From a virus (Duplodnaviria > Heunggongvirae > Uroviricota > Caudoviricetes): a DNA stretch of 17,009 bases. The stretch is taken from the IMG/VR virus record IMGVR_UViG_2879736954_000011. One strand, given 5' to 3'. Under the pieces are notes generated by a model. That model was given only the letters and a program-made list of their open reading frames with translations. It had not been told where the DNA came from and made no database searches. Within the stretch, counting starts at the first letter, position 1; every line of letters begins with the position of its first letter. Shown here piece by piece: positions 1 through 15,493 of the stretch. The translations under genes were made by a program, and so were the position numbers.

Positions 1-819
1 ATGTGTCAGGTATTTGGTGTATCCAGGAGCGGTTATTACAACTGGGTACAGCATGAACCCTCAGACAGAAAACAAAGTGATGAGCGGCTAAAACCGGAGA
101 TTAAGGTGGCACATATCCGCACTCGCGAAACATATGGAACCCGGCGGCTCCAGACGGAGCTGGCAGAGAATGGCATCATCGTTGGTCGTGACCGACTGGC
201 ACGTCTTCGTAAGGAGCTGAGGCTACGCTGTAAGCAGAAACGCAAGTTCAGAGCGACTACGAACCCGAACCACAATCTGCCAGTTGCGCCAAATCTGCTG
301 AACCAGACGTTCGCTCCTACAGCACCAAATCAGGTCTGGGTGGCGGACCTGACGTATGTTGCCACACAGGAGGGATGGTTGTACCTCGCTGGCATCAAAG
401 ATGTTTATACGTGCGAAATTGTCGGCTACGCCATGGGAGAGCGCATGACAAAAGAGCTGACAGGTAAAGCCCTGTTTATGGCGCTCAGGAGCCAGCGCCC
501 ACCTGCCGGGCTAATCCACCACTCTGATCGAGGTTCACAGTACTGCGCATACGATTACCGGGTCATACAGGAGCAGTCTGGTCTGAAAACATCAATGTCG
601 CGTAAAGGTAACTGTTACGACAACGCTCCGATGGAAAGCTTCTGGGGAACGCTGAAAAATGAGAGCCTGAGCCACTATCGTTTTAATAACCGGGATGAAG
701 CCATCTCAGTAATACGGGAATACATTGAGATTTTCTACAATCGTCAGCGTCGTCACTCTCGTCTGGGGAATATCTCCCCGGCAGCCTTCAGGGAAAAATA
801 TCATCAGATGGCTGCTTAA
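1..819 (+). CDS. IS3-family transposase OrfB (integrase/DDE catalytic domain), 5'-partial
   Basis: Translation contains the typical IS3 OrfB motifs (VSRSGYY HTH, LTYV...WLYLA...D, HSDRGSQY, CYDNA...ESFW, RRHS...SP); no credible upstream start, consistent with OrfAB frameshift fusion. Confidence 0.85.
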   Translation: MCQVFGVSRSGYYNWVQHEPSDRKQSDERLKPEIKVAHIRTRETYGTRRLQTELAENGIIVGRDRLARLRKELRLRCKQKRKFRATTNPNHNLPVAPNLLNQTFAPTAPNQVWVADLTYVATQEGWLYLAGIKDVYTCEIVGYAMGERMTKELTGKALFMALRSQRPPAGLIHHSDRGSQYCAYDYRVIQEQSGLKTSMSRKGNCYDNAPMESFWGTLKNESLSHYRFNNRDEAISVIREYIEIFYNRQRRHSRLGNISPAAFREKYHQMAA

Positions 820-831
820 AAAAGAACAAAT

Positions 832-861
832 GGTAGTGTCCGCTATTGCCAGTACACCTCA
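832..861 (+). repeat. IS right terminal inverted repeat (IRR)
   Basis: Sequence ...GGTAGTGTCCGCTATTGCCAGTACACCTCA ending in CA about 40 bp after the transposase stop; resembles IS3 end motif (CAGCAATAG.GGACAC) from memory. Confidence 0.5.
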
Positions 862-1569
862 ACTTGTGAAGGAAATGGTACTCAGGGGGATTCCAGTACA
901 GGTGGTGCGCAATTAGCTATAAATGGCCTTAACGGTTCGTGCGCTTTGGTATTAAACAACCCATACTTTGAGGCTAATGCCGGGGGGGCAGACCTTGCTA
1001 TAGATAATACTGGGACGCGCCCTGTAACTGTGGTTATAAACGGTGGAAATTTTCATCGCGTGAGCAGTGCAAGATACACGCACACGAATATTCAAGTAAC
1101 AAGCTCAGGTGGGGGAAAAGTTACAGTCATACTCAACGGCACAACGTTCCAGAGCGCAGGGGATTATCAGCCAAGTGCAGAACGACCATACTGGATAACA
1201 GGAGCTAATTGCGAGGTAGTTGACATTGGGTGTGTTTTTACAGAAACAACCAGTAAGGTAACATCGGCTTCTGCATTGTCAGTCACACGCTCGGGAAAAA
1301 TTAACGCCAATGGTAGTATCGACGTTGCTACTGGTGTTTCATCGGTTAACGTGGTTTCTACAGGTGTGTATGATGTTAGCTTTTCTCATCCGCTCGCAGC
1401 AGTTGCTAGCGGTTATATTGTGCAGATAACACCTATATCTGCGCCTGATTCAGTTAGTTGTGATGTTACTTATATTGGCGTAGATACATTTAGGGTGACC
1501 CTGCGCAATACGCTTAGCGGGGCAGGAATCTCCAGTTCGTTTGCATTTAGCATTACCAGACTAATATAA
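862..1569 (+). pseudogene. Tailspike / tail-fibre protein, C-terminal fragment; 5' part displaced by the IS
   Basis: Frame 1 is open from the IS end to the stop at 1569 with no plausible native start (the ORF-track start at 946 is TTG); Gly/Thr/Ser/Asn/Val-rich repetitive composition; located just upstream of O-antigen modification gene and attP as in P22/Sf6-type phages. Confidence 0.4.
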
Positions 1570-1609: not shown

Positions 1610-1622
1610 TTATGTTTATTGT

Positions 1623-2795
1623 TTATTGATTGTTGTTTGTTAATGTGGGTATTAATTCTTTTACTAAAGTTGTGGTTTGTTTTGTTAATTTGATGAATGG
1701 CGTCTCTATTAATTTAAAAGTTAGGCATGATGTGAACGTAATAAGAAATGCAGTTGTGCTTACCAGTATGATAAATGTATTTTCAGTGTAATTATTAGGA
1801 ATAATCCACGTCATTAGGCAATAAAGGAATATCCCATGCAGAAGGTAAACGCTGTAGGTAGTTTCTCCTAGCTTTCTGGTTATATTTAATCTTAATATTC
1901 CATACAAATCACAACCTGATGCGATAATGATAAATGTTATTCCACAAAGAATCAGTGGTAGCGGTGCGTAAGTTGTTTTGAAATACGTCATTTCAAAAAC
2001 CATTATCGCAGTTATTATAATTGGTGTTACTTTTGCTTTGGCAATTCCATTGACTATCTTTGATTTATTTAGCAAAAATGCCAGGAGCCCAAAAAGAAAT
2101 GATGCTATGTGTATTTTACTGAAAAATAAAATGAAAACAAATAGCGATATTGCGCTAATCATAACCATGTAAATACTGACTTTTCTTTTTATGAGCGCGG
2201 AAATTACCGGAAGAGAAAAATAAAAGAACCATTCATATACAAGTGTCCATGTTACAGCGGCATTGATAGTAAATGAATCTTTTACGTCATTAATGTTCGG
2301 CATACCTAGCGCAGTGAATGGCAACCACTTCATTATTGACACAAAAAGCTCTTCTGTGGATACCTGCATTCTCCATCCAGACTTAAAACCTACAATGATA
2401 AAAATGAGACATAGGCTAACTATGAACATTGGGGTTAATCGTAGTAATCTTGATACATAAAGCCTTGTCCAGTCCTGATCTCCAGAGATAATCTTTGAAA
2501 AGAACAGATAACCAGTAATCATAAAAAAGAATGACACACCAACTTGGCCTAAATTTGCTAACAGATTTGATGAAGGTGCTTCCCATACTCCAGATGACAA
2601 GTATCCATTCCAAATTGCTGCGTGATGAATAAGCACGAAAATTGCTAAGAACCCCCGCATTCCATCTATTTGATTATTCCTGCCGTGCTCAACAAGATTT
2701 ATTGGGGAAATTTTATCAAATAACCCCACAGCTAATAACGACATCAATATCACGGATGTTATTAATAATAAACTGTTAATTTCAATCATATGCAT
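1623..2795 (-). CDS. Acyltransferase family 3 (AT3) integral membrane protein; O-antigen O-acetyltransferase-like (Oac-like) seroconversion gene
   Basis: 390 aa, multi-pass hydrophobic protein; N-terminal NQIDGMRGFLAIFVLIHH motif (conserved Arg and His-His of the AT3 domain); strongly AT-rich gene in the position occupied by gtr/oac genes between tailspike and attP. Confidence 0.75.
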   Translation of the reverse strand: MHMIEINSLLLITSVILMSLLAVGLFDKISPINLVEHGRNNQIDGMRGFLAIFVLIHHAAIWNGYLSSGVWEAPSSNLLANLGQVGVSFFFMITGYLFFSKIISGDQDWTRLYVSRLLRLTPMFIVSLCLIFIIVGFKSGWRMQVSTEELFVSIMKWLPFTALGMPNINDVKDSFTINAAVTWTLVYEWFFYFSLPVISALIKRKVSIYMVMISAISLFVFILFFSKIHIASFLFGLLAFLLNKSKIVNGIAKAKVTPIIITAIMVFEMTYFKTTYAPLPLILCGITFIIIASGCDLYGILRLNITRKLGETTYSVYLLHGIFLYCLMTWIIPNNYTENTFIILVSTTAFLITFTSCLTFKLIETPFIKLTKQTTTLVKELIPTLTNNNQ

Positions 2796-3083
2796 GCTCT
2801 ATTACGCAATTAAAATTTCTCCAAGTATACTGACTTTTAGTTAATGATCATATAGTTATGTGTAACTGATGAAACAAAACGGAGACACACCAAGCTTTGC
2901 ACTGGATTGCAAGGCTTTGTGCTCTTCTGTGAATGTGTGGCTATATGTTTGAAGATCGTTGTGCCGTATTTGTGACATATATATGGCAACATCATGCATC
3001 AACTTTCTGTTTGTGTCATCAACTATAGCTTAGTGAATGCGGTTAATGCTTGCTAAAACAGATAGTTATGATTGGTGCTACAG

Positions 3084-3129
3084 ATTCGTAATGCGAAGGT
3101 CGTAGGTTCGACTCCTATTATCGGCACCA
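3084..3129 (+). other. attP core: 46-bp identity to the 3' end of tRNA-Thr (thrW) including CCA; not a complete tRNA gene
   Basis: ATTCGTAATGCGAAGGTCGTAGGTTCGACTCCTATTATCGGCACCA matches the anticodon-loop-to-CCA part of E. coli/Salmonella thrW from memory; upstream sequence does not continue as tRNA; int stop codon lies 15 bp away. Confidence 0.8.
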
Positions 3130-3143
3130 TTAAAATCAATAAG

Positions 3144-4307
3144 TTACACATCATTAGTACCTTCCTTATTTTTTGACTGGGACAAATTTGGGACCGATGG
3201 GTTCAGGATCGAGTCTATTTGCCGTGCGTGTTCGGTAAGGTGATTAGGTGCAAGGTGAGCATATCGACGAACCATTTCGATAGACTCCCAGCCTCCCATT
3301 TCCTGTAACACTGACAATGGGACTCCGGCTTGAACCAGCCAACTTGCCCAGGTGTGTCTCAAGTCGTGAAATCTGAAATCATCAATACCAGCCCGTCTCA
3401 GCGCCGCTTTCCAGGCTGTGTTTGCGTCATACCGCATCTTCCTTACTGTTGGCGCTTTCGTTCCGTCTGGTTTGGTACAGCTTTCCTTGTATACAAATAC
3501 CCAACGGTGATGATTCCCGATTTGTTTTTTCAATACGCGACATGCAGTATCATTCAGCGCAACGCCAATTGCGCGGTTTGATTTACTCTCTTCCGGGTTT
3601 ATCCATGCCACCCGGCGCTGCATGTCTATTTGTTGCCATTCAAGGTTGATGATGTTCGAGCGTCTTAAGCCTGTTGCCAGTGCAAATTCAACAACAGACT
3701 TTAATGGCTCCGGACATTCATCAATCAGCCTTTGTGCTTCATGAGGCTCCAGCCAGCGGATACGTTTATTCTTCGGTTGAGGCACTTTAATAATTGGTGC
3801 CTTATCCAGCATTTTCCATTCACGCTCTGCGGCTCTTAGCAGGGCCTTTATAAATGAAAGATGCGTAGCCTTCGTTGCAACGGACGCTGGTTTTGGCGTG
3901 TATTCTGGAACAGGTTTCCCTTTTTTTCTGCATGCTTCTGCCCTGAGTTTCCAGTTTTCCTCATGACGCCGGTTCGTCATTTTCTGCATTGCTGAATAAA
4001 TTTTTGATTCAGTAATGTCTTTTAGTTGCATTCCTGCGAAATGTTGAAGCCAGAATCCGATCCGGCTTTTGTCATCGTCCAGTGATTTTTTATGTGCTTT
4101 CTCTTCGAGCCACCTGACACACGCTTCCTCAAACGTCATATCAGGTATTTCACCAAGTTTGCTGACCCGCCATGCTTCAGCCTTTAGCTTGTCATGGAGC
4201 TCTGTCGCCTGCCTTTTGTCCTTTGTTCCAAGAGACTGTTTAAATCTTTTACCGTTCGGCAATGTGAAACTGGCGTACCATATTTCACTTCTGCGGAAGA
4301 GTGACAT
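3144..4307 (-). CDS. int: Tyrosine integrase, P22-type (thrW-specific)
   Basis: 387 aa; N-terminus [44 protein letters not shown] and C-terminal [17 protein letters not shown]...RYAHLAP catalytic region match P22 Int as I recall it; GAGG RBS. Confidence 0.9.
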
Positions 4308-4534
4308 TTTCTTTCCTCTGTTATGCCATCACCCGCGCTCACCTTGATAGTATGCAGCGGAGACTGAAGCGCCGCAATGCAGGCTTGTCGCGTTGTGAGG
4401 TAAGGAGATTTTGGTTTAGTGGGGTCTTTGCGTGTTGCCTGTAGGCGGCCTGTTCGTATCCAGTTGGTGGCGGTTGGTCTGGATATCTTAAGAAACTGAC
4501 AGGCCTCATCGAGTGTGAGGCTGTATGATTCCAT
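4184..4534 (-). CDS. xis: Excisionase, P22-type
   Basis: 116 aa from [31 protein letters not shown] (winged-helix Xis motif); overlaps the 5' end of int as in lambda/P22; the ORF-track start 30 nt upstream is probably not used. Confidence 0.8.
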
Positions 4535-4784
4535 GGTTACCTCTGCTTTTTGAACGCATGTCACGTAACTTCTTAATGTGTTCTGCCGTTTCGATCTCTT
4601 CTGCTATCCGATCTGCATCAGCTTTATTCACAGGTTCAAAGTCATGATTAAAGCGGAACATGCTGGCGATACATGTTCTGCCTTTTCGGATGTAGTGAAC
4701 TTTGTTGTGGGTAGAACGCAGGATTTTGCAGGGAGTGCCGTGGTGGTCGACGTACCAGGTGTTAGGCAAAATGATTCTGAACAT
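4506..4784 (-). CDS. Small hypothetical protein (DUF4222-like pattern)
   Basis: 92 aa, GAGGTG RBS before ATG at 4784; pattern ...HG...V..V..N.VHY.R.G...C...F...F.PV resembles small prophage proteins of unknown function. Confidence 0.5.
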   Translation of the reverse strand: MFRIILPNTWYVDHHGTPCKILRSTHNKVHYIRKGRTCIASMFRFNHDFEPVNKADADRIAEEIETAEHIKKLRDMRSKSRGNHGIIQPHTR

Positions 4785-4831
4785 TTTTACACCTCAGTTG
4801 GACGATGTTGAAATTTGCTGCCTTGAGGCCA

Positions 4832-5050
4832 TCACAGTCCCCATTGTTTGTTCTTAAGTTCGATCTCCTCCTGGCAACTTGCACAAGTCCGACAACCCTG
4901 AACAGCCAGGCGTCTTCGCTCATCTATCGGATCGCCACACTCACAACAATGAGTTGCGGATACAGTCTGGTAGTTCAGACGACGCATTTTTATTGCTGTA
5001 TTGCGCTGTAATTCTTCGATTTCTGATGCTGAATCAATGATGTCTGCCAT
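4832..5050 (-). CDS. TraR/DksA-family C4 zinc-finger protein
   Basis: 72 aa with CxxC-(17)-CxxC (CCECGDPIDERRRLAVQGCRTCASCQ), the phage TraR-like zinc finger. Confidence 0.7.
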   Translation of the reverse strand: MADIIDSASEIEELQRNTAIKMRRLNYQTVSATHCCECGDPIDERRRLAVQGCRTCASCQEEIELKNKQWGL

Positions 5051-5103
5051 CTTTCATTAATCCCTGAATTGTTGGTTAATACGCTTGAGGGTGAATGCGA
5101 ATA

Positions 5104-5126
5104 ATAAAAAAGGAGCCTGTAGCTCC
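5104..5126 (-). terminator. Possible intrinsic terminator on the minus strand
   Basis: Minus-strand GGAGC-TACAG-GCTCC hairpin followed by TTTTTT, immediately downstream of the 71-aa gene; short 5-bp stem. Confidence 0.35.
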
Positions 5127-5148
5127 CTGATGATTTTGCTTTTCATGT

Positions 5149-5364
5149 TCACCGTTCCTTAAAGACGCCGTTTAACATACCGATTGCCAGACTTAAGTGA
5201 GTCGGTGTGAATCCCATCAGCGTTACCGTTTCGCGGTGCTTCTTTAGTACGCTACGGCAAATGTCATTGACGTTTTTATCCGGAAACTGCTGTCTGGCTT
5301 TTTTGATTTCATAATTAGCCTGACGGGCAATGCTGCGAAGGGCGTTATTATGTTCTATTGTCAT
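5149..5364 (-). CDS. Hypothetical protein, 71 aa
   Basis: Internal ATG at 5364 with GTGAGG RBS, 8 bp after the stop of the upstream 250-aa gene; the longer ORF-track version would overlap that gene by 131 bp. Confidence 0.5.
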   Translation of the reverse strand: MTIEHNNALRSIARQANYEIKKARQQFPDKNVNDICRSVLKKHRETVTLMGFTPTHLSLAIGMLNGVFKER

Positions 5365-5371
5365 ATTGGCC

Positions 5372-6124
5372 TCACACTTCGAATGCCAGTTGAGGGGTAA
5401 AGACGTCCCGTTCAGCGTTGTAATTAAGTGAACTGGCACTGTTGAATGATTCAATGCGTTCCACAAGAACTTGCGTACGGGTTTCTTTACTTGCGGGAGC
5501 ATATGGCGAACCTACCCAGGATTTGTCGATGCCTATATTTCTTGCGACGTTCGTGCTGTCTGCAGACGAAAGCGGTACATGAGTAAAAATGTCTTTATTT
5601 AACATCCGTAACCCATGAATCTTGGTGATTGGGTAGCCGTACTGATCTACAACATGACGTATAAGATCGCGTAGTTTAGCCCGACACGCTCTCGGTCGTT
5701 TTGCATCGTATTCCCCCATCGAGCCGATGCAGACGCGGGGAAACTCATGGCACAGACGAATAAATCGCTCATCTGGTTCGTTCATGTGCCACACCGGAGC
5801 ACCAATAAATTTACCGTGAGGCCATGCCGCAATCAGGGCGTCATTCTCTTCACTGGTTCCGCCGATAACATCCGGGATAACCGCGAATGAGAAACGAGGG
5901 TGATTGCCCCAGCGTTCAACAAATCTGTAATATTCATTCCAGTCTACGGCCTTGTTTTTTGTCCAGAATGTGAATGCACCATTATCAAGAGCAAATGATT
6001 GGGTGACTTCGGAAGCCAGATCAATCTGAGCTGGATTAGCAAAACTGATGAATGCGTGTCTGCCTTTCCAGGCTTTCAACGCACAGGTATCGGGAGTTAT
6101 TGGACCACCGTGAAAATGAATCAT
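5372..6124 (-). CDS. Hypothetical protein with tRNA-guanine transglycosylase (TGT)-like motifs; candidate DpdA-like 7-deazaguanine DNA transglycosylase
   Basis: 250 aa; GGGAGAG RBS; collinear motifs resembling bacterial TGT: FISFAN (cf ILGNTF), LDNGAF (cf TDSGGF, catalytic Asp), FAVIPDV (cf IVMIFDE), CIGSMGE (cf AVGGLAVGE), IHGL (cf LMGVG), NVARN (cf RNARN); no C-terminal Zn subdomain. By-eye comparison only. Confidence 0.4.
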   Translation of the reverse strand: MIHFHGGPITPDTCALKAWKGRHAFISFANPAQIDLASEVTQSFALDNGAFTFWTKNKAVDWNEYYRFVERWGNHPRFSFAVIPDVIGGTSEENDALIAAWPHGKFIGAPVWHMNEPDERFIRLCHEFPRVCIGSMGEYDAKRPRACRAKLRDLIRHVVDQYGYPITKIHGLRMLNKDIFTHVPLSSADSTNVARNIGIDKSWVGSPYAPASKETRTQVLVERIESFNSASSLNYNAERDVFTPQLAFEV

Positions 6125-6279
6125 ACACTCTCCCGTTTATTATTTATCTCCTCAGCCAGCCGCTGGGCTTTCAGCGGATTTCGGATAACAGAAAGGCCGG
6201 GAAATACCCAGCCTCGCTTTGTAACGGAGTAGACGAAAGTGATCGCGCCTACCCGGATATTATCGTGAGGATGCTTCAT
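6121..6279 (-). CDS. Small protein resembling lambda orf60a (52 aa here)
   Basis: [52 protein letters not shown]; ATGA overlaps with exo stop upstream and with the 250-aa gene start downstream (translational coupling). Confidence 0.5.
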
Positions 6280-6956
6280 CGCCATTGCTCCCCAAATACA
6301 AAACCAATTTCAGCCAGTGCCTCGTCCATTTTTTCGATGAACTCCGGCACCATCTCGTCAAAACTCGCCATGTAATTTTCATCCCGCTCAACCACGACAT
6401 AATGCAGGCCTTCACGCTTCATTCGTGGGTCATAGTTGGCAAAGTACCAGGCATCTTTTCGCGTTACCCACATGCTGTACTGCACCTGGGCCATGTAAGC
6501 CGACTTTATGGCCTCGAAACCACCGAGCCGGAATTTCATGAAATCCCGGGAGGTAAACGGGCATTTCAGTTCAAGGCCGTTGCCGTCACTGCATAAACCA
6601 TCGGGAGAGCAGGCGGTGCGCATATTTTCGTCGCGATAGATGATCGGGGATTCAGTAACATTCACGCCGGAAGTGAATTCAAACAGGGTTCTGGCGTCGT
6701 TCTCGTACTGTTTTCCCCAGGCCAGCGCCTTAGCATTAACTTCCGGAGCCACACCGGTGCAAACCTCAGCCAGCAGGGTGTGGAAGTAGGACATTTTCAT
6801 GTCAGGCCACTTCTTTCCTGAGCGGGGCTTTGCTATCACGTTGTGAACTTCTGAAGCGGTGATGACGCCGAGCCGTAATTTGTGCCATGCATCATCCCCC
6901 TGTTCGACAGCTCTCACGTCGATCCCGGTACGCTGCAGGATAATGTCCGGTGTCAT
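6276..6956 (-). CDS. exo: Lambda exonuclease (Red alpha)
   Basis: 226 aa, [43 protein letters not shown]... matches lambda Exo from memory. Confidence 0.95.
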
Positions 6957-7738
6957 GCTGCCACCTTCTGCTCAGTGGCTTTCTGTTTCAGGAATCCAAG
7001 AGCTTTCACTGCTTCGGCCTGTGTCAGTTCTGACGATGCGCGAATGTCGCGGCGAAATATCTGGGAACAGAGCGGCAATAAGTCGTCATCCCATGTTTTA
7101 TCCAGGGCGATCAGCAGAGTGTTAATCTCCTGCATGGTTTCATCGTTAACCGGAGTGATGTCGCGTTCCGGCTGACGTTCTGCAGTGTATGCAGTATTTT
7201 CGACAATGCGCTCGGCTTCATCCTTGTCATAGATACCAGCAAATCCGAAGGCCAGACGGGCACACTGAATCATGGCTTTATGCCGTAACATCCGTTTGGG
7301 ATGCGACTGCCACGGTCCGGTGATTTCTCTGCCTTCGCGGGTTTTGAATGGTTCGCGGCGGCATTCATCCATCCACTCGGTAACGCAGATCGGATGATTA
7401 CGGTCCTTGCGGTAAATCCGGCATGTGCAGGATTCATTGTCCTGCTCAAAGTCCATGCCATCAAACTGCTGGTTTTCATTGATGATACGGGACCAGCCAT
7501 CAACGCCCACCACCGGAACGATGCCGTTCTGCTTGTCAGGGAAGGCGTAAATTTCTTTCGTCCACGGATTAAGGCCGTACTGGTTGGCGACGATCAACAA
7601 TGCGATGAACTGCGCATCGCTGGCATCACCTTTAAATGCCGTCTGGCGAAGAGTGGTGATCAGTTCCTGTGGGTCGACAGAATCCATGCCGACACGTTCA
7701 GCCAGCTTCCCAGCCAGCGTTGCGAGTGCTGTACTCAT
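6953..7738 (-). CDS. bet: Lambda Bet (Red beta) single-strand annealing protein
   Basis: 261 aa, [48 protein letters not shown]... matches lambda Bet; 4-bp overlap with exo. Confidence 0.95.
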
Positions 7739-7743
7739 CCGTT

Positions 7744-8160
7744 TTATACCTCTGAATCAATATCAACCTGGTGGTGAGCAATGGTTTCAACCATGTACCG
7801 GATGTGTTCTGCCATGCGCTCCTGAAACTCAACATCGTCATCAAACGCACGGGTAATGGCTTTTTTGATGGCCCCGTGGCGTTGCAAATGATCGAAGCAT
7901 AGCGATTCAAACAGGTGCTGGGGCAGGCCTTTTTCCATGTCGTCTGCCAGTTCTGCCTCTTTCTCTTCACGGGCGATCTGCTGGTAGTGACGCGCCCAGC
8001 TCTGAGCCTCAAGACGATCCTGAATGTAATAAGCGTTCATGGCTGAACTCCTGAAATAGCTGTGAAAATATCGCCCGCGAAATGCCGGGCTGATTAGGAA
8101 AACAGGAAAGGGGGTTAGTGAATGCTTTTGCTTGATCTCAGTTTCAGTATTAATATCCAT
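7744..8160 (-). CDS. gam: Lambda Gam (RecBCD inhibitor), long form
   Basis: 138 aa, [61 protein letters not shown]... matches lambda Gam. Confidence 0.95.
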
Positions 8161-8258
8161 TTTTTATAAGCGTCGACGGCCTCACGAAACATCTTTTCAT
8201 CGCCAATAAAAGTGGCGATAGTGAATTTAGTCTGGATAGCCATAAGTGTTTGATCCAT
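8115..8258 (-). CDS. kil: Kil (host killing / FtsZ inhibitor)
   Basis: 47 aa [47 protein letters not shown]; overlaps gam start by 46 bp as in lambda. Confidence 0.85.
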
Positions 8259-8391
8259 TTTTTGGGACTCCTGGCTGATTAAGTATGTCGATAAGGCGTT
8301 TCCATCCGTCACGTAATTTACGGGTGATTCGTTCAAGTAAAGATTCGGAAGGGCAGCCAGCAACAGGCCACCCTGCAATGGCATATTGCAT
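8227..8391 (-). CDS. cIII: CIII (FtsH inhibitor, stabilises CII)
   Basis: Manual translation from ATG at 8391: MQYAIAGWPVAGCPSESLLERITRKLRDGWKRLIDIL..., 54 aa; AAGGAG RBS; below the ORF-track length cutoff. Confidence 0.85.
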   Translation of the reverse strand: MQYAIAGWPVAGCPSESLLERITRKLRDGWKRLIDILNQPGVPKNGSNTYGYPD

Positions 8392-8413
8392 GGTGTGCTC
8401 CTTATTTATACAT

Positions 8414-8440
8414 AACGAAAAACGCCTCGAGTGAAGCGTT
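8414..8440 (-). terminator. Terminator-like hairpin plus U-tract upstream of cIII (early-left operon)
   Basis: Minus strand AACGCTTCACTCGAGGCGTTTTTCG: stem then T5, just 5' of the cIII RBS. Confidence 0.4.
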
Positions 8441-8463
8441 ATTGGTATGCGGTAACGCCGCGC

Positions 8464-8832
8464 TCAGGCGGCTTTGATAGTCATATCATCTGAATCAAAT
8501 ATTCCTGATGTATCGATATCGGTAATTCTTATTCCTTCGCTACCATCCATTGGAGGCCATCCTTCCTGACCATTTCCATCATTCCAGTCGAACTCACACA
8601 CAACACCATATGCATTTAAGTCGCTTGAAATTGCTATAAGCAGAGCATGTTGCGCCAGCATGATTAATACAGCATTTAATACAGAACCGTGTTTATTGAG
8701 TCGGTATTCAGAGTCTGACCAGAAATTATTAATCTGGTGAAGTTTTTCCTCTGTCATTACGTCATGGTCGATTTCAATTTCTATTGATGCTTTCCAGTCG
8801 TAATCAATGATGTATTTTTTGATGTTTGACAT
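8464..8832 (-). CDS. ea10: Ea10 (lambda early-left protein, putative ssDNA-binding)
   Basis: 122 aa MSNIKKYIIDYDWKASIEIEIDHDVMTEEKLHQINNFWSDSEYRLNKHG... matches lambda Ea10. Confidence 0.9.
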   Translation of the reverse strand: MSNIKKYIIDYDWKASIEIEIDHDVMTEEKLHQINNFWSDSEYRLNKHGSVLNAVLIMLAQHALLIAISSDLNAYGVVCEFDWNDGNGQEGWPPMDGSEGIRITDIDTSGIFDSDDMTIKAA

Positions 8833-8850
8833 CTATTCATATCCTCACAG

Positions 8851-8879
8851 AAAAAAATTGCCCTCACACTGGAGGGCAA
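8851..8879 (-). terminator. Intrinsic terminator between ral and ea10 (minus strand)
   Basis: Minus strand TTGCCCTC-CAGTGT-GAGGGCAA (8-bp stem) followed by TTTTTTT, directly upstream of the ea10 RBS. Confidence 0.6.
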
Positions 8880-9034
8880 AGAAGATTTCCAATAATCAGA
8901 ACAAGTCGGCTCCTGTTTAGTTACGAGCGACATTGCTCCGTGTATTCACTCGTTGGAATGAATACACAGTGCAGTGTTTATTCTGTTATTTATGCCAAAA
9001 ATAAAGGCCACTATCAGGCAGCTTTGTTGTTCTG

Positions 9035-9214
9035 TTAACCAAGTTCTCTGGCAATCATTGCCGTCGTTCGTATTGCCCATTTATCGACATATTTCCCATC
9101 TTCCATTACAGGAAACATTTCTTCAGGCTTAACCATGCATTCCGATTGCAGCTTGCATCCATTGCATCGCTTGAATTGTCCACACCATTGATTTTTATCA
9201 ATAGTCGTAGTCAT
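9035..9214 (-). CDS. ral: Ral (restriction alleviation), 59 codons here; in-frame TAA where I recall Lys60 in 66-aa lambda Ral
   Basis: Manual translation from ATG at 9214: MTTTIDKNQWCGQ...RTTAMIARELG then TAA (plus-strand TTA at 9035-9037); remaining codons to 9014 read QNNKAA-stop in frame. Confidence 0.75.
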   Translation of the reverse strand: MTTTIDKNQWCGQFKRCNGCKLQSECMVKPEEMFPVMEDGKYVDKWAIRTTAMIARELG

Positions 9215-9284
9215 ACGGATAGTCCTGGTATTGTTCCATCACATCCTGAGGATGCTCTTCGAACTCTTCAAATTCTTCTTCCAT
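9198..9284 (-). CDS. orf28-like small acidic ORF overlapping the ral start
   Basis: GAGGTG RBS + ATG at 9284; MEEEFEEFEEHPQDVMEQYQDYPYDYDY (28 aa); overlaps ral by 17 nt. Confidence 0.55.
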   Translation of the reverse strand: MEEEFEEFEEHPQDVMEQYQDYPYDYDY

Positions 9285-9484
9285 ATATCACCTCAAATAA
9301 GTTGTTTGCTGCGAAAGTAAATACGCTTAAGTTACCTGTTATTTATTCCACCAAGTTCCGTATCTATCTATCCAGTTACACCAATCATCGACACTCCATT
9401 TTGTTGTGTCGCATTTTGGCAACTGGCATGAATATCTACCTTCTTTGTAAAGTCGGCGTTTGACTTTCTTGAGCATGGCTCACC

Positions 9485-9817
9485 TCAATCGTAATAAGCT
9501 GGAATTGATTTTCCGCGTTGCTTCTGGCGGCCTGAGCAAGTCACACCCATTTCACAGCGTGGCTTGCTGTACCATGTGCGCTGATTCTTGCGCTCAATAC
9601 GTTGCAGGTTGCTTTCAATCTGTTCGTGGTATTCAGCCAGCACCGTAAGGTCTATCGGATTCAGTGCGCTTTCTACTCGTGATTTCGGTTTGCGATTCAG
9701 CGAGAGAATAGGGCAGTTAACTGGTTTTGCGCTTACCCCAACCAACAGGGGATTTGCTGCTTTCCATTGAGCCTGTTTCTCTGCGCGACGTTCGCGGCGG
9801 CGTGCTTGTGCATCCAT
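9485..9817 (-). CDS. N: N antitermination protein (lambda N-like, divergent C-terminus)
   Basis: MDAQARRRERRAEKQAQWKAANPLLVGVSAKPVN... arginine-rich motif at N-terminus; AGGAGA RBS; about 90% identical to lambda N by eye, C-terminal tail differs (…GKSIPAYYD). Confidence 0.9.
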   Translation of the reverse strand: MDAQARRRERRAEKQAQWKAANPLLVGVSAKPVNCPILSLNRKPKSRVESALNPIDLTVLAEYHEQIESNLQRIERKNQRTWYSKPRCEMGVTCSGRQKQRGKSIPAYYD

Positions 9818-9927
9818 CTGGATTCTCCTGTCAGTTAGCTTTGAGTAACGCGCCGTGATGCTTATCTCCACGGTTGCTGTCTTGCAGCTGCATTTCGCGC
9901 TACTCAAAGCCTTCTGCTTTGAATGCT

Positions 9928-9958
9928 GCCCTTCTTCAGGGCTAAATTTTTAAGAGCC
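9928..9958 (-). promoter_or_regulatory. nutL (boxA + boxB) N-utilisation site
   Basis: Minus strand GGCTCTTA (boxA-like) then GCCCTGAAGAAGGGC (boxB hairpin) upstream of N. Confidence 0.8.
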
Positions 9959-9991
9959 TCACCTTCAATGGTGGTCAGTGCGTCCTGCTGA

Positions 9992-10062
9992 TGTGCTCAG
10001 TATCACCGCTAGTGGTATTTATGTCAACACCGCCAGAGATAATTTATCACCGCAGATGGTTA
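9992..10062 (-). promoter_or_regulatory. pL promoter with oL1-oL3 operators
   Basis: Minus-strand -35 TTGACA (10022-10027) and -10 GATACT (9999-10004); operator 17-mers TATCACCGCTAGTGGTA, CAACACCGCCAGAGATA, TATCACCGCAGATGGTT. Confidence 0.85.
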
Positions 10063-10206
10063 TCTGTATGTTTTTTATATGAATTTATTTTTTGCAGGGG
10101 GCATTGTTTGGTAGGTGAGAGATCTGAATTGCTATGTTTAGTGAGTTGTATCTATTTATTTTTCAATAAATACAATTGGTTATGTGTTTTGGGGGCGATC
10201 GTGAGG

Positions 10207-10233
10207 CAAAGAAAACCCGGCGCTGAGGCCGGG
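10207..10233 (-). terminator. Intrinsic terminator after rexB (timm-like)
   Basis: Minus strand CCCGGCCTCAGCGCCGGG hairpin followed by TTTTCTTTG, immediately after the rexB stop. Confidence 0.6.
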
Positions 10234-10668
10234 TTATTCTTGTTCTCTGGTCAAATTATATAGTTGGAAAACAAGGATGCATATATGAATGAACGATGCA
10301 GAGGCAATGCCGATGGCGATAGTGGGTATCATGTAGCCGCTTATGCTGGAAAGAAGCAATAACCCGCAGAAAAACAAAGCTCCAAGCTCAACAAAACTAA
10401 GGGCATAGACAATAACTACCGATGTCATATACCCATACTCTCTAATCTTGGCCAGTCGGCGCGTTCTGCTTCCGATTAGAAACGTCAAGGCAGCAATCAG
10501 GATTGCAATCATGGTTCCTGCATATGATGACAATGTCGCCCCAAGACCATCTCTATGAGCTGAAAAAGAAACACCAGGAATGTAGTGGCGGAAAAGGAGA
10601 TAGCAAATGCTTACGATAACGTAAGGAATTATTACTATGTAAACACCAGGCATGATTCTGTTCCGCAT
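10234..10668 (-). CDS. rexB: RexB (membrane component of the Rex exclusion system)
   Basis: 144 aa hydrophobic protein matching lambda RexB. Confidence 0.9.
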   Translation of the reverse strand: MRNRIMPGVYIVIIPYVIVSICYLLFRHYIPGVSFSAHRDGLGATLSSYAGTMIAILIAALTFLIGSRTRRLAKIREYGYMTSVVIVYALSFVELGALFFCGLLLLSSISGYMIPTIAIGIASASFIHICILVFQLYNLTREQE

Positions 10669-10683
10669 AATTACTCCTGATAA

Positions 10684-11523
10684 TTAATCCTTAACTTTGC
10701 CCACCTGCCTTTTAAAACATTCCAGTATATCACTTTTCATTCTTGCGTAGCAATATGCCATCTCTTCAGCTATCTCAGCATTGGTGACCTTGTTTAGAGG
10801 CGCTGAGAGATGGCCTTTTTCTGATAGATAATGTTCTGTTAAAATATCTCCGGCCTCATCTTTTGCCCGCAGGCTAATGTCTGAAAATTGAGGTGACGGG
10901 TTAAAAATAATATCCTTGGCAACCTTTTTTATATCCCTTTTAAATTTTGGCTTAATGACTATATCCAATGAGTCAAAAAGCTCCCCTTCAATATCTGTTG
11001 CCCCTAAGACCTTTAATATATCGCCAAATACAGGTAGCTTGGCTTCTACCTTCACCGTTGTTCGGCCGATGAAATGCATATGCATAACATCGTCTTTGGT
11101 GGTTCCCCTCATCAGTGGCTCTATCTGAACGCGCTCTCCACTGCTTAATGACATTCCTTTCCCGATTAAAAAATCTGTCAGATCGGATGTGGTCGGCCCG
11201 AAAACAGTTCTGGCAAAACCAATGGTGTCGCCTTCAACAAACAAAAAAGATGGGAATCCCAATGATTCGTCATCTGCGAGGCTGTTCTTAATATCTTCAA
11301 CTGAAGCTTTAGAGCGATTTATCTTCTGAACCAGACTCTTGTCATTTGTTTTGGTAAAGAGAAAAGTTTTTCCATCGATTTTATGAATATACAAATAATT
11401 GGAGCCAACCTGCAGGTGATGATTATCAGCCAGCAGAGAATTAAGGAAAACAGACAGGTTTATTGAGCGCTTATCTTTCCCTTTATTTTTGCTGCGGTAA
11501 GTCGCATAAAAACCATTCTTCAT
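10684..11523 (-). CDS. rexA: RexA (sensor component of the Rex abortive-infection system)
   Basis: 279 aa MKNGFYATYRSKNKGKDKRSINLSVFLNSLLADNHHLQVGSNYLYIHKIDGKTF... matches lambda RexA. Confidence 0.9.
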   Translation of the reverse strand: MKNGFYATYRSKNKGKDKRSINLSVFLNSLLADNHHLQVGSNYLYIHKIDGKTFLFTKTNDKSLVQKINRSKASVEDIKNSLADDESLGFPSFLFVEGDTIGFARTVFGPTTSDLTDFLIGKGMSLSSGERVQIEPLMRGTTKDDVMHMHFIGRTTVKVEAKLPVFGDILKVLGATDIEGELFDSLDIVIKPKFKRDIKKVAKDIIFNPSPQFSDISLRAKDEAGDILTEHYLSEKGHLSAPLNKVTNAEIAEEMAYCYARMKSDILECFKRQVGKVKD

Positions 11524-11635
11524 AATTCAATCCATTTACTATGTTATGTTCTGAGGGGAGTGAAAATTCCCCTAATTCGATGAAGATTCTTGCTCAATTG
11601 TTATCAGCTATGCGCCGACCAGAACACCTTGCCGA

Positions 11636-12352
<717 letters not shown>

Positions 12353-12359
12353 TTAAATC

Positions 12360-12425
12360 TATCACCGCAAGGGATAAATATCTAACACCGTGCGTGTTGA
12401 CTATTTTACCTCTGGCGGTGATAAT
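12360..12425. promoter_or_regulatory. oR3-oR2-oR1 operators with divergent pRM and pR promoters
   Basis: TATCACCGCAAGGGATA (12360-12376), TAACACCGTGCGTGTTG (12383-12399), TACCTCTGGCGGTGATA (12407-12423); pR -35 TTGACT and -10 GATAAT upstream of cro. Confidence 0.9.
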
Positions 12426-12440
12426 GGTTGCATGTACTAA

Positions 12441-12650
<210 letters not shown>

Positions 12651-12657
12651 ATAACCC

Positions 12658-12689
12658 CGCTCTTACACATTCCAGCCCTGAAAAAGGGC
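12658..12689 (+). promoter_or_regulatory. nutR (boxA CGCTCTTAC + boxB GCCCTGAAAAAGGGC)
   Basis: Exact boxA and boxB hairpin motifs immediately downstream of cro. Confidence 0.85.
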
Positions 12690-12764
12690 ATCAAATTAAA
12701 CCACACCTATGGTGTATGCATTTATTTGCATACATTCAATCAATTGTTATCTAAGGAAATACTT

Positions 12765-12800
12765 ACATATGGTTCGTGCAAACAAACGCAACGAGGCTCT
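12765..12800 (-). promoter_or_regulatory. pRE-type CII-activated promoter region (TTGC-N6-TTGC)
   Basis: Minus-strand TTGCGTTTGTTTGC overlapping the start of cII, the position of the CII binding site in lambda. Confidence 0.45.
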
Positions 12801-13062
12801 ACGAATCGAGAGTGCGTTGCTTAACAAAATCGCAATGCTTGGAACTGAGAAGACAGCGGAAGCTGTGGGCGTTGATAAGTCGCAGATCAGCAGGTGGAAG
12901 AGGGACTGGATTCCAAAGTTCTCAATGCTGCTTGCTGTTCTTGAATGGGGGGTCGTTGACGACGACATGGCTCGATTGGCGCGACAAGTTGCTGCGATTC
13001 TCACCAATAAAAAACGCCCGGCGGCAACCGAGCGTTCTGAACAAATCCAGATGGAGTTCTGA
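12769..13062 (+). CDS. cII: CII transcriptional activator
   Basis: 97 aa from internal ATG 12769: MVRANKRNEALRIESALLNKIAMLGTEKTAEAVGVDKSQISRWKRDWIPKFSMLLAVLEWG... Confidence 0.9.
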   Translation: MVRANKRNEALRIESALLNKIAMLGTEKTAEAVGVDKSQISRWKRDWIPKFSMLLAVLEWGVVDDDMARLARQVAAILTNKKRPAATERSEQIQMEF

Positions 13063-13084
13063 GGTCATTACTGGATCTATCAAC
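13008..13084 (-). ncRNA. oop: OOP antisense RNA (about 77 nt) overlapping the 3' end of cII
   Basis: Minus-strand sequence GTTGATAGATCCAGTAATGACCTCAG...CGCTCGGTTGCCGCCGGGCGTTTTTTATT with terminal hairpin and U-tract, matching lambda OOP from memory. Confidence 0.6.
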
Positions 13085-13094
13085 AGGAGTCATT

Positions 13095-13994
13095 ATGACA
13101 AATACAGCAAAAATACTCAACTTCGGCAGAGGTAACTTTGCCGGACAGGAGCGTAATGTGGCAGATCTCGATGATGGTTACGCCAGACTATCAAATATGC
13201 TGCTTGAGGCTTATTCGGGCGCAGATCTGACCAAGCGACAGTTTAAAGTGCTGCTTGCCATTCTGCGTAAAACCTATGGGTGGAATAAACCAATGGACAG
13301 AATCACCGATTCTCAACTTAGCGAGATTACAAAGTTACCCGTCAAACGGTGCAATGAAGCCAAGTTAGAACTCGTCAGAATGAATATTATCAAGCAGCAA
13401 GGCGGCATGTTTGGACCAAATAAAAACATCTCAGAATGGTGCATCCCTCAAAACGAGGGAAAATCCCCTAAAACGAGGGATAAAACATCCCTCAAATTGG
13501 GGGATTGCTATCCCTCAAAACAGGGGGACACAAAAGACACTATTACAAAAGAAAAAAGAAAAGATTATTCGTCCGAGAATTCTGGCGAATCCTCTGACCA
13601 GCCAGAAAACGATCTTTCTGTGGTTAAACCGGATGCTGCAATTCAGAGCGGCAGCAAGTGGGGGACAGCAGAAGACCTGACCGCCGCAGAGTGGATGTTT
13701 GACATGGTGAAGACCATCGCGCCATCAGCCAGAAAACCGAATTTTGCAGGGTGGGCTAACGATATCCGCCTGATGCGTGAACGTGACGGACGTAACCACC
13801 GCGACATGTGCGTGCTGTTCCGCTGGGCATGCCAGGACAACTTCTGGTCCGGTAACGTGCTGAGTCCGGCCAAACTCCGCGACAAGTGGACCCAGCTCGA
13901 AATCAACCGAAACAAGCAACAGGCTGGCGTGACAGCCGGCAAACCAAAACTCGACCTGACGAACACTGACTGGATTTACGGGGTGGATTTATGA
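13095..13994 (+). CDS. O: Replication initiator O
   Basis: 299 aa MTNTAKILNFGRGNFAGQERNVADLDDGYARLSNMLLEAYSG... matches lambda O. Confidence 0.95.
   Translation: MTNTAKILNFGRGNFAGQERNVADLDDGYARLSNMLLEAYSGADLTKRQFKVLLAILRKTYGWNKPMDRITDSQLSEITKLPVKRCNEAKLELVRMNIIKQQGGMFGPNKNISEWCIPQNEGKSPKTRDKTSLKLGDCYPSKQGDTKDTITKEKRKDYSSENSGESSDQPENDLSVVKPDAAIQSGSKWGTAEDLTAAEWMFDMVKTIAPSARKPNFAGWANDIRLMRERDGRNHRDMCVLFRWACQDNFWSGNVLSPAKLRDKWTQLEINRNKQQAGVTAGKPKLDLTNTDWIYGVDL
13443..13572 (+). repeat. ori-lambda: four iterons plus AT-rich region inside the O gene
   Basis: ATCCCTCAAAACGAGGGA / AAATCCCCTAAAACGAGGGA / ACATCCCTCAAATTGGGGGA / ATCCCTCAAAACAGGGGGA followed by the AAAAGAAAAAAGAAAAG tract. Confidence 0.8.
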
Positions 13995-14692
13995 AAAACA
14001 TCGCCGCACAGATGGTTAACTTTGACCGTGAGCAGATGCGCCGGATCGCCAACAATATGCCGGAACAGTACGACGAAAAGCCGCAGGTACAGCAGGTAGC
14101 GCAGATCATCAACGGTGTGTTCAGCCAGTTACTGGCAACTTTCCCGGCGAGCCTGGCTAACCGTGACCAGAATGAACTGAACGAAATCCGCCGCCAGTGG
14201 GTTCTGGCTTTCCGGGAAAACGGGATCACCACAATGGAACAGGTTAACGCTGGAATGCGCGTAGCCCGTCGGCAGAATCGACCATTCCTGCCATCACCCG
14301 GGCAGTTTGTCGCCTGGTGCCGGGAAGAAGCATCTGTTAACGCCGGGCTGCCAAACGTCAGCGAGCTGGTTGATATGGTTTACGAGTATTGCCGGAAGCG
14401 TGGCCTGTATCCGGATGCAGAGTCTTATCCGTGGAAATCGAACGCGCATTACTGGTTGGTTACCAACTTGTACCAGAACATGCGGGCCAATGCGCTGGCT
14501 GACGCGGAATTACGGCGCAAGGCTGCCGATGAACTGACCTGTATGACAGCGCGAATTAACCGTGGTGAGACGATACCTGAACCAGTAAAACAACTTCCTG
14601 TTATGGGCGGTAGACCTCTAAATCGTGCACAGGCTCTGGCGAAGATCGCAGAAATTAAAGCTAAGTTCGGACTGAAAGGAGCAAGTGTATGA
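13991..14692 (+). CDS. P: Replication protein P (DnaB helicase loader)
   Basis: 233 aa MKNIAAQMVNFDREQMRRIANNMPEQYDEKPQVQQVAQIINGVFSQLLATF... matches lambda P; ATGA overlap with O. Confidence 0.95.
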   Translation: MKNIAAQMVNFDREQMRRIANNMPEQYDEKPQVQQVAQIINGVFSQLLATFPASLANRDQNELNEIRRQWVLAFRENGITTMEQVNAGMRVARRQNRPFLPSPGQFVAWCREEASVNAGLPNVSELVDMVYEYCRKRGLYPDAESYPWKSNAHYWLVTNLYQNMRANALADAELRRKAADELTCMTARINRGETIPEPVKQLPVMGGRPLNRAQALAKIAEIKAKFGLKGASV

Positions 14693-14979
14693 CGGGCAAA
14701 GAGGCAATTATTCATTACCTGGGGACGCATAAGAGCTTCTGTGCACAGGACGTTGCCGCGGTAACAGGCGCAACCGTAACCAGCATAAATCAGGCTGCGG
14801 CTAAAATGGCGCGGGCAGGAATCCTGGTCGTTGATGGTAAGGTCTGGCGAACGGTGTATTACCGGTTCGCTACCAGAGAAGAATGGGAAGGAAAGGTGAG
14901 CACGAATCTGATTTTTAAGGAGTGTCGCCAGAGTGCCGCGATGAAACGGGTATTGGCGGTATATGGAGTTAAAAGATGA
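14689..14979 (+). CDS. ren: Ren (Rex exclusion protection)
   Basis: 96 aa MTGKEAIIHYLGTHKSFCAQDVAAVTGATVTSINQAAAKMARAG...; overlaps P stop. Confidence 0.9.
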   Translation: MTGKEAIIHYLGTHKSFCAQDVAAVTGATVTSINQAAAKMARAGILVVDGKVWRTVYYRFATREEWEGKVSTNLIFKECRQSAAMKRVLAVYGVKR

Positions 14980-15004
14980 CCATCTACATTACTGAGCTAA
15001 TAAC

Positions 15005-15036
15005 AGGCCTGCTGGTAATCGCAGGCCTTTTTATTT
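15005..15036 (+). terminator. tR2-type intrinsic terminator
   Basis: AGGCCTGC-TGGTAATC-GCAGGCCT (8-bp stem) followed by TTTTATTT, between ren and ninB. Confidence 0.7.
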
Positions 15037-15052
15037 GGGGGAGAGGGAAGTC

Positions 15053-15493
15053 ATGAAAAAACTAACCTTTGAAATTCGATCTCCAGCACATCAGCAAAAC
15101 GCTATTCACGCAGTACAGCAAATTCTTCCAGACCCAACCAAACCAATCGTAGTAACCATTCAGGAACGCAACCGCAGCTTAGACCAAAACCGAAAGCTTT
15201 GGGCTTGCCTTGGTGACGTCTCTCGTCAGGTTGAATGGCATGGTCGCTGGCTGGATGCAGAAAGCTGGAAGTGTGTGTTTACCGCAGCATTAAAGCAGCA
15301 GGACGTTGTTCCTAACCTTGCCGGGAATGGCTTTGTGGTAATAGGCCAGTCAACCAGCAGGATGCGTGTAAGCGAATTTGCGGAGCTATTAGAGCTTATA
15401 CAGGCATTCGGTACAGAGCGTGGCGTTAAGTGGTCAGACGAAGCGCGACTAGCTCTCGAATGGAAAGCGCGATGGGGAGATCGGGCTGCATGA
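15053..15493 (+). CDS. ninB: NinB (Orf-family recombination mediator)
   Basis: 146 aa from ATG 15053 (GAGAGGGAAG RBS): MKKLTFEIRSPAHQQNAIHAVQQILPDPTKPIVVTIQERNRSLDQNRKLWACLGDVSRQ... Confidence 0.9.
   Translation: MKKLTFEIRSPAHQQNAIHAVQQILPDPTKPIVVTIQERNRSLDQNRKLWACLGDVSRQVEWHGRWLDAESWKCVFTAALKQQDVVPNLAGNGFVVIGQSTSRMRVSEFAELLELIQAFGTERGVKWSDEARLALEWKARWGDRAA

Follow-up and report, generated by a model that had tools for sequence, protein, structure and literature searches.

Features of the locus

Here we describe the surroundings of a partial tRNA gene in a stretch of 17,009 nucleotides of viral DNA (Caudoviricetes; IMG/VR record IMGVR_UViG_2879736954_000011), which is referred to below as the window. 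From left to right, the locus comprises part of an insertion sequence (IS), the remnant of a tailspike gene, an O-antigen acetyltransferase gene, a phage attachment (att) core with an arm on each side, the genes int and xis, and a long early region (Table 1).

Table 1. Features of the locus in the window. Prophages A and B denote the left-hand and right-hand partners of the junction in the reading preferred here.
Feature	Position	Strand	Remarks
IS3-family insertion sequence, 3' part	1..861	+	transposase orfB 1-819; truncates the tailspike gene
Tailspike C-terminal remnant, Sf101-like, P22-type	862..1569	+	read as last late gene of defective prophage A
oacB, O-antigen 3/4-O-acetyltransferase, AT3 family	1623..2795	-	lysogenic-conversion cargo; read as right end of prophage A
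oacB upstream region	2796..2873	.	common to Sf101 and E. coli G3/10 (alignment)
P arm type c, SfX/HK542/mEp213 attP family	2874..3083	+	arm comparison
Candidate Int-ii arm-type repeat, TGTGCCGT	2960-2967		at -124
Candidate Int-ii arm-type repeat, TGTGACAT	2971-2978		at -113
Candidate Int-ii arm-type repeat, degenerate, TGTGTCAT	3012-3019		at -72
att core, 46 bp	3084-3129	+	thrW 3' end; proposed crossover region
P' arm type i, SfI/SfII/P22 family	3130..3330 (end approximate)	+	overlaps int 3' end
Candidate Int-i arm-type repeat, GGGACA	3179-3184		at +50
Candidate Int-i arm-type repeat, GGGACC	3190-3195		at +61
int, tyrosine integrase class i	3144..4307	-	read as first gene of prophage B
xis (excisionase)	4184..4534	-	HTH_17 domain; annotated xis in SfI
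SfI early region	4535..15810	.	read as body of prophage B; SfI JX509734 annotation

The att core (ATTCGTAATGCGAAGGTCGTAGGTTCGACTCCTATTATCGGCACCA, a 46-mer on the plus strand) occurs once in the window, where no chance match is expected even if three mismatches are allowed. It is identical at 46/46 positions to the 3' 46 nt of thrW as called by ARAGORN in a comparison locus (L026), where a 76-nt tRNA-Thr(CGT) gene at 11179-11254 runs base by base from its 5' half into the core. In the window, 0 bases left of the core show thrW identity, no tRNA gene was detected with ARAGORN, and the Rfam tRNA match reached 15.7 bits, below the gathering score of 29. The initial annotation had stated that only the 46-bp 3' portion of a tRNA-Thr gene is present, and this is correct: it is the exact 3' end of thrW without the 5' half. 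The same 46-mer was determined experimentally as the core of attP, attL and attR of phage SfI (PMC3636060), and it is labelled 'attP core' in the SfI record JX509734. A complete tRNA-Thr gene (5' half plus core) abutting int is lacking in the window; such an arrangement characterizes the canonical attL in locus L026, our positive control, in which the identical Int lies beside a complete thrW. The locus is thus not the attL of a single prophage at thrW. This agrees with the initial annotation, which had taken it not to be a simple prophage end with a complete tRNA gene; nor are positions 2796-3083 chromosomal sequence continuous with a complete thrW, since they consist of phage DNA.

The P' arm is 100% identical to that of SfI, and its candidate repeats are in register with those of SfI, SfII and P22. 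The product of int, a gene 15 bp away from the core, has 387 aa and a Phage_integrase domain (E = 2.8e-48) and is identical to SfI Int. Ordinary E. coli lysogens encode an identical Int next to a complete thrW, the tRNA gene lying between int and proA. The class i Int of the window and the class ii Int of HK542 share 56% identity, with the greatest differences at the N-terminus. Xis scored 27.8 bits against the TIGR01764 excisionase model, just under the cutoff of 28.8; its gene is intact in the window and interrupted by an IS at about position 4441 in the 2a strains, and the homology of the window to the 2a chromosomes stops at 4441. Positions 3084-15810 of the window correspond to 21231-33957 of SfI JX509734 (12,727 bp; 100.0% identity by megablast, 99.98% with 2 mismatches by blastn), and the match sets in precisely with the first core base. 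The early region encodes exo/bet/gam, N, rexAB, cI, cro, cII, O, P, ren, ninB and the 5' part of dam. The homology to SfI halts at about 15810, where a plasmid-type resolvase module starts, and an ORF at the right end was rejected as a phage gene because it belongs to this mobile module. Assembly matches to an early protein encoded at 5372-6124 came only from unrelated lysogens at the icd site.

The IS at the left end has rve and HTH_21 domains, matches the NCBIfam model of IS3 family transposases with 336 bits and is 99% identical to IS copies in Stx phages. The tailspike remnant comprises the C-terminal 235 residues (about 346-580 of 580) and is 77% identical to residues 346-580 of the Sf101 tail protein (BLASTP); homology at the DNA level starts at 862 for E. 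coli G3/10 and at 922 for Sf101. In CP026871 (locus L008), genes of P22-type gp16, injection protein and gp7 follow past the IS in the same direction. The product of oacB has an Acyl_transf_3 domain and is identical to the OacB of Sf101 at 388 of 390 residues; two residues were also reported to differ between the chromosomal allele and that of Sf101 (PMC4159516), and the function was assigned after PMC4159516 and PMC8952252. Exactly the same 390-aa protein occurs in 2,935 public assembly blocks, among them those of strain 2457T and of closed Shigella flexneri chromosomes. The initial annotation was therefore right in placing int on one side of the core and late genes on the other, where the IS-cut tailspike lies, and its acyltransferase is to be corrected from the oac of Sf6 to oacB. 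Two other candidates were rejected: oac1b, considered as a neighbour of SfI, belongs to another prophage, which occupies the torT locus (PMC3630932), and oacC of serotype 6 is 72% identical to oacB and lies in the context of an SfII-like myovirus (PMC4206707).

Judging from the alignment, the region upstream of oacB (Table 1) is part of the oacB cassette and lies outside the thrW-type arm. A weak promoter-like match is the sole functional hint in this region, which may hold the oacB promoter, and a consensus terminator scan of positions 2700-3250 found no terminators. The left arm itself is 98% identical to the attP arm of HK542 and 95% identical to that of SfX, and 37% identical to that of SfI; the same arm type is annotated as attP in the records of HK542 and mEp213. 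Its candidate repeats are in register with those of HK542 and were recovered independently by a repeat finder. The distal part of the arm (2874-2930) is a conserved linker with a hairpin that is only moderately stable (z = -2.2).

Composition of the junction

The arms were compared over 210 bp to the left and 400 bp to the right of every available copy of the core. In free phages, arm b is paired with int i (SfI, SfII) and arm c with int ii (HK542, SfX), and P22 has its own related pair. The window combines arm c with the arm of int i, so that its two arms do not come from one family as do those of a native attP. Candidate repeats share a common register across sites (-124, -113, -59 or -72, +50, +61), and their position and repetition suggest that they are arm-type sites of Int; a literature search found no primary description of the P22 arm-type sites. 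The repeats are of the GGGACA/GAGACA type on both arms in SfI, SfII and P22 and of the type TGTGCC(G/A)T on both arms in HK542. Whereas native attPs are homotypic in this way, the repeats left of the core in the window are TGTGCC-type and those right of it GGGAC-type. Among 50,697 phage records, not one extends across the junction of arm c, core and int i (c-core-i): where a record has arm c, its match ends 18 bp beyond the core, and where it has int i, its match starts with the core. Rather than a native attP, the site is a hybrid formed by recombination between two attP families.

The breakpoint of this hybrid lies at the core. The window and the chromosome of S. flexneri 2457T differ at one of 3,083 bp to the left of the core (a mismatch within the IS), at no position in the core, and at 31 of 1,312 bp to the right of it, the first mismatch being at 3132 (left versus right, Fisher p = 9e-16). 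At least three different int-i alleles follow this one left arm among strains, and the allele of the window is that of SfI and of an ordinary E. coli attL lysogen. Since the int allele switches to the right of the core while the left arm remains constant, the exchange can be placed at the core. The possibility that 2a strains have the int allele of SfII itself next to oacB was rejected on the basis of 15 differences, and given this mismatch the idea that the resident serotype-converting phage had supplied int was dropped.

These comparisons also bear on the manner of joining. SfI could have been joined by general homologous recombination (RecA or phage Red) between the incoming phage and a resident int(i) remnant beside oacB. 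The int alleles are mosaic between strains, with seven patchily distributed differences between locus L011 and 2457T, for example, from which it follows that general recombination is active at this locus; moreover, SfI carries exo/bet. However, as the first SfI-specific base is at 3132, the crossover would have to fall, within a homology of about 1.36 kb, into the leftmost 48 bp (the core and 2 more bp), a placement expected in roughly 3.5% of cases if crossovers were uniform, and general recombination would need a c-core-i junction that already existed, so that a hybrid has to be explained in any case. We consider this route unlikely. Because the exchange falls within these 48 bp, integrase is favoured over general recombination as the probable joining agent.

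Chromosomal occurrence

In a set of 5,426 complete E. coli genomes, 37 have a contiguous c-core-i junction. In the closed genome of E. coli GDSC2BY4G, the junction is 96% and 99.5% identical to the two arms of the window. The array in this genome starts with proB, proA and a complete tRNA-Thr gene, followed by the core, an int of class ii (97% to HK542) and a P22-like prophage that extends to the tailspike; then come arm c, a core and int(i), after which a second prophage, a lambdoid one, leads to the third core; this one has a b-like arm and adjoins chromosomal genes. All cores have the same direction. From this order, arm c is where an Int-ii prophage ends on the right, and the junction combines the attR of that prophage with the attL of the next. 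In two more E. coli chromosomes, other upstream prophages, namely a siphovirus with type III secretion system (T3SS) effector cargo and a myovirus-type prophage, end in c-core-int(i). The junction is thus an internal seam between adjacent prophages in all three E. coli cases inspected, and a complete thrW is present at the start of the array in the one case that was followed from end to end. The window has a single copy of the core, so the array context is seen in the E. coli analogue and not in the window itself.

In S. flexneri, window positions 1-4441 are collinear with closed chromosomes including that of 2457T, with an identity of about 99.2%. In those chromosomes, the succession of int, core, oacB, tailspike remnant and IS sits just upstream of adrA/proC, and oacB has been described as part of a 'transposon-like structure' upstream of adrA at the proA-adrA locus (PMC4159516, PMC4206707, PMC5596473). 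This collinearity with closed chromosomes makes the arrangement a fixed chromosomal feature and not a free phage genome.

The initial annotation had read the window as a circular, excised or virion-type genome, i.e., as the DNA of a single phage with positions 2796-3143 as its native attP. Its observation that the layout resembles an attP is accurate (P arm, core, and P' arm with int), late genes, partial tRNA core and int follow one another as in an attP, and both int and xis are intact. Nevertheless, the closed-chromosome collinearity next to adrA/proC, the prophage seams in E. coli, the heterotypic arms and the lack of this pairing among the phage records all contradict the reading, and a genome with an IS-cut tailspike and an early region broken by a plasmid-type module would not make a viable virion. 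The window can hardly represent such a phage. By contrast, the fallback offered in the same annotation, a rearranged element, is borne out by the hybrid arms in a chromosomal stack of prophages.

A misassembly across the repeated core would place an arrangement thrW-core-int(SfI) and a second one, oacB-core-int with the 2457T allele, in the true genome. The core plus 2 bp form an exact repeat of 48 bp, the int alleles are 97.6% identical, and the exact configuration of arm c with the SfI allele of int was not found in public assemblies. We nonetheless regard a misjoin as very unlikely: this class of junction is real in many closed chromosomes, both in Sanger-era and in recent complete assemblies, a full prophage follows c-core-int(i) in E. 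coli, and the presence of parts of two mobile elements in the window suggests a long contig rather than a short-read fragment.

The S. flexneri chromosomes contain further rearrangements. In 2a strains, an IS of the same type and in the same orientation is found on both sides of the oacB block; the window has the left copy (1-861) and lacks the right-hand copy beyond int, where SfI sequence continues. Relative to adrA, 2457T-type chromosomes carry the oacB block the other way round, and two hybrid junctions in inverted orientation face each other across an IS, the second core being inverted. The 2a lineages differ by IS-bounded inversions. For the inverted layout of 2457T, serial integration alone is insufficient, and IS-mediated rearrangement or transposition is needed as well. 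The reciprocal hybrid, b-core-int(ii)', is present in 2457T, in CP026871 and, in locus L054, at the SfI end that bears gtrI; a canonical attR (b-core-chromosome) in locus L053 served as control. With reciprocal hybrids in both directions, prophages of SfI and of the Int-ii type occur in either order, joined at their shared core.

The IS copies also lend themselves to another interpretation, namely that an unsampled P22-like phage with oacB has c-core-int(i) as its native attP and came into the chromosome, or was moved within it, in the attP form and independently of its own integrase, by IS composite transposition or by homologous recombination with a resident prophage. The block of int, core, oacB and tailspike remnant between two same-orientation IS copies in 2a strains would fit a composite transposon, the block was called transposon-like in the literature (PMC4159516, PMC4206707), and the oacB cassette is carried by varied integration modules (Sf101 at sbcB, G3/10 by ybhB/bio). 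This interpretation is improbable. In all free phages, and likewise in the GDSC2BY4G array, the partner of arm c is int ii and not int i, the repeat types of the two arms differ, the left arm is near-identical among strains while the int allele changes exactly at the core, and a remnant of int(ii) lies a few kb off in the same loci. IS transposition may well have moved the block at a later stage, but it leaves the joining of c to i unexplained.

Origin of the junction

In our assessment, the site is most probably the attR of a defective oacB prophage that was fused to the attL of SfI by integrase-mediated serial integration. As in a tandem array, the two arms come from different phages with the break in similarity at the core, and a tailspike remnant and oacB lie on one side, with the int, xis and early region of SfI on the other.

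Under this model, prophage A would be a P22-like oacB phage with an attP of the composition c-core-int ii and a cognate integrase of class ii, and prophage B an SfI-type phage with the attP b-core-int i. Because the thrW core of 46 bp is identical in both families, integration of a second phage beside a resident prophage is possible. The second phage, in the order of events that we infer, would have entered the copy of the core that already bordered the resident prophage, by an integrase crossover inside the core. The product would have phage DNA on both sides and look like an attP, with the complete tRNA gene remaining at the far end of the array, and the junction would double as attR for prophage A and as attL for prophage B. 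Both partners are degraded, which would have happened later, by the IS insertion (1-861) and by the insertion of a mobile element (about 15810), respectively.

For the function of the site, the model predicts that Int(i) and Xis(i) would use only the P' arm here, in its attL role. The foreign left arm would be irrelevant to the excision of SfI and would serve as P arm in the excision of prophage A. As a broader possibility, which we put forward tentatively and consider doubtful, two integrase classes (SfI/P22-type and SfX/HK542-type) that share the thrW core might exchange O-antigen-modification modules (oacB, gtr) as cassettes between unrelated prophages by crossovers in the core. The 'transposon-like' oacB element would then be a fossil of such an exchange, and heterotypic junctions might be half-sites that are still recombinogenic and able to permute or co-excise stacked prophages.

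In a contig, a partial tRNA gene with int on one side and late or cargo genes on the other is no evidence that the genome is excised or comes from a virion. An attP-like junction is regenerated between the prophages of tandem lysogens, as known from lambda genetics. The expectation that int and the late genes are separated once a phage is integrated accordingly applies to single lysogens and fails for tandem lysogens. As stacked prophages at one tRNA gene produce such a layout routinely, it is uninformative on excision. The int-att-oacB block used for Shigella serotype prediction is a seam between two prophages, and the location of serotype-conversion genes at such seams helps to explain the build-up of O-antigen modification genes at the proA-adrA locus. 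The main relevance of these results is for annotation; they open no long-standing question.

Comparison with known systems

Tandem polylysogens of phage lambda have the order attL, prophage, attP, prophage, attR, which is the basis of PCR tests for single-copy integrants. The present site resembles them in that phage DNA flanks a single chromosomal core and complete bacterial half-sites occur only at the ends of the array (GDSC2BY4G). It differs in that the prophages are unrelated and have different integrase classes that share only the core, which results in a heterotypic hybrid instead of the native attP being regenerated.

Sf101 shares oacB (388/390), a related tailspike and the cassette up to window position 2927, including the conserved linker, but it has another integration module with a 13-bp attP and the sbcB site (PMC4159516) and diverges from the window past 2927.

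The native attP of SfI, SfII, SfIV and SfV lies between gtrA and int and has the same core as the window, as does P22. The P' arm and int of the window are identical to those of SfI, 98-99% identical to those of SfII, SfIV and SfV, and about 80-83% identical to those of P22, and the GGGAC repeats at +50 and +61 are common to all. In contrast, the P arms of the SfI group (type b) and of P22 (type d) are 37-39% identical to that of the window and have GAGACA/GGGACA instead of the TGTGCC-type repeats. The reverse applies to the attPs of HK542, mEp213, mEp043, HK75, HK446, mEpX2, ECP1 and SfX, which have the same core and P arms 94-98% identical to that of the window; attPs of the HK542 group are annotated as 'similar to thrW and ptwF'. 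This group differs on the right, where int is of class ii (56% at the protein level; arm DNA 69%) and the P' arm also has TGTGCC repeats.

The oacB element of S. flexneri is reportedly a 'transposon-like structure' upstream of adrA at the proA-adrA (thrW) locus (Wang et al. 2014, J Bacteriol 196:1525, as cited in PMC4159516, PMC4206707 and PMC5596473). Positions 1-4441 of the window are 99.2% identical to 2457T and related chromosomes, with the same OacB, tailspike remnant, left IS, arm and core. Unlike that element, the window is without an IS to the right of int; xis is intact there, SfI early region continues for 11 kb, and the int allele is that of SfI and not that of the 2a strains. We found no statement in the literature on the heterotypic (hybrid) nature of the site, which is still within known biology. 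In sequence and layout, the junction matches the already-described serotype-conversion locus of S. flexneri and is known biology.

The tailspike-oacB cassette of the window ends in a linker of about 55 bp (GAAACAAAACGGAGACACAC..GCTTTGCACTGGATTGCAAGGCTTTG), which is common to Sf101, Escherichia coli G3/10, HK542, SfX and GDSC2BY4G (an E. coli with stacked prophages) and is present in related form in the SfI and P22 arms. The cassette is found with no fewer than three distinct integration modules, in the window, Sf101 and E. coli G3/10, and the three sequences part company just past this linker, which marks the edge of the conversion-gene cassette in the mosaic. On its minus strand, a predicted hairpin (-19.2 kcal/mol, z = -2.2) is followed by a U-rich tract, and the linker may serve as a terminator or an insulator on the int side. 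An inverted repeat of 18 nt (83% complementary), the right arm of which overlaps the int stop codon, encloses the entire P arm and the core (the 3' 46 nt of thrW); this repeat may be a chance occurrence.

Coordinates of the features at the thrW locus, in related loci and at the right end of the window
Feature	Sequence	Position	Character
IS3-family element truncating the tailspike gene	window	1-861	
Tailspike-oacB cassette	window	862-2927	
Inverted repeat	window	2853-2870 / 3139-3156	
Conserved linker	window	within 2870-2930	
Insertion point of second IS3-family copy in 2a strains	window equivalent	~4441	in xis
Last SfI-homologous position	window	15810	in dam
PRiA4_ORF3-family ORF	window	15902-16492	beyond end of SfI homology
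Integration module with cassette	window		thrW-type arm
Integration module with cassette	Sf101 (L015)		sbcB-type
Integration module with cassette	E. coli G3/10 (L003)		site beside ybhB/bioA (lambda att region)
Reciprocal hybrid junctions	2457T (L013, AE014073)	6685-6730 and 9667-9712	gtrA-arm b-core-int(ii)' and int(i)-core-arm c-oacB
IS3-family copies	2457T (L013)	7104-7965 and 11935-12795	
Int(i), core and second integrase gene	E. coli assemblies L027, L033	~11160-11400	
Effector-carrying prophage end with arm c, core and int(i)	E. coli TB354 (L063)	15716-19788	

Other elements were found at the same core. Two E. coli assemblies carry an identical SfI-type integrase, Int(i), and core followed by a second integrase gene, with no thrW 5' half; the island past the core, which contains TrbL/NikA-like and defence genes, shows that a further type of element can stack there. 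In E. coli TB354, a lambdoid prophage with type III secretion effector cargo (nleB, an espO fragment and espK) ends in arm c, the P arm of the SfX/HK542 family, which immediately adjoins the core and int(i), and arm c is therefore also used by effector-carrying phages.

Both reciprocal hybrid junctions, which involve arm b (the SfI/SfII P arm) and the HK542/SfX-type integrase int(ii), are present in Shigella flexneri 2457T, where they lie inverted relative to each other at a distance of about 3 kb, with an IS between them; the layout in CP026871 is the same. Candidate origins of this pair are a triple array, integration into an intact attP, an integrase-mediated inversion and IS events. The int(i) alleles adjoining oacB (window 3130-4441 versus L005, L008, L011 and L013) vary patchily among S. 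flexneri lineages, L011 resembling the window at some sites and 2457T at others, and because of this patchiness the sequences suggest gene conversion among several int copies at the locus.

At the right end (window 15790-17009), SfI homology stops within dam and is followed by a plasmid-type module with a resolvase, which identifies a mobile element inserted in the SfI prophage. From the PRiA4_ORF3-family ORF onward, the sequence is 99.8% identical to a module that more than 1,800 plasmid records carry. Its constant companions in assemblies are a 463-aa protein and a resolvase of 190 aa, and beta-lactamase or Tn3-family genes often adjoin it; the element is possibly resistance-associated.

In 2a strains, the IS3-family element responsible for the tailspike truncation occurs in two copies, the second lying on the far side of int; unlike in these strains, this copy beyond int is absent from the window. 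In 2a strains the two flanking copies have the same orientation, which explains the composite-transposon appearance reported in the literature.
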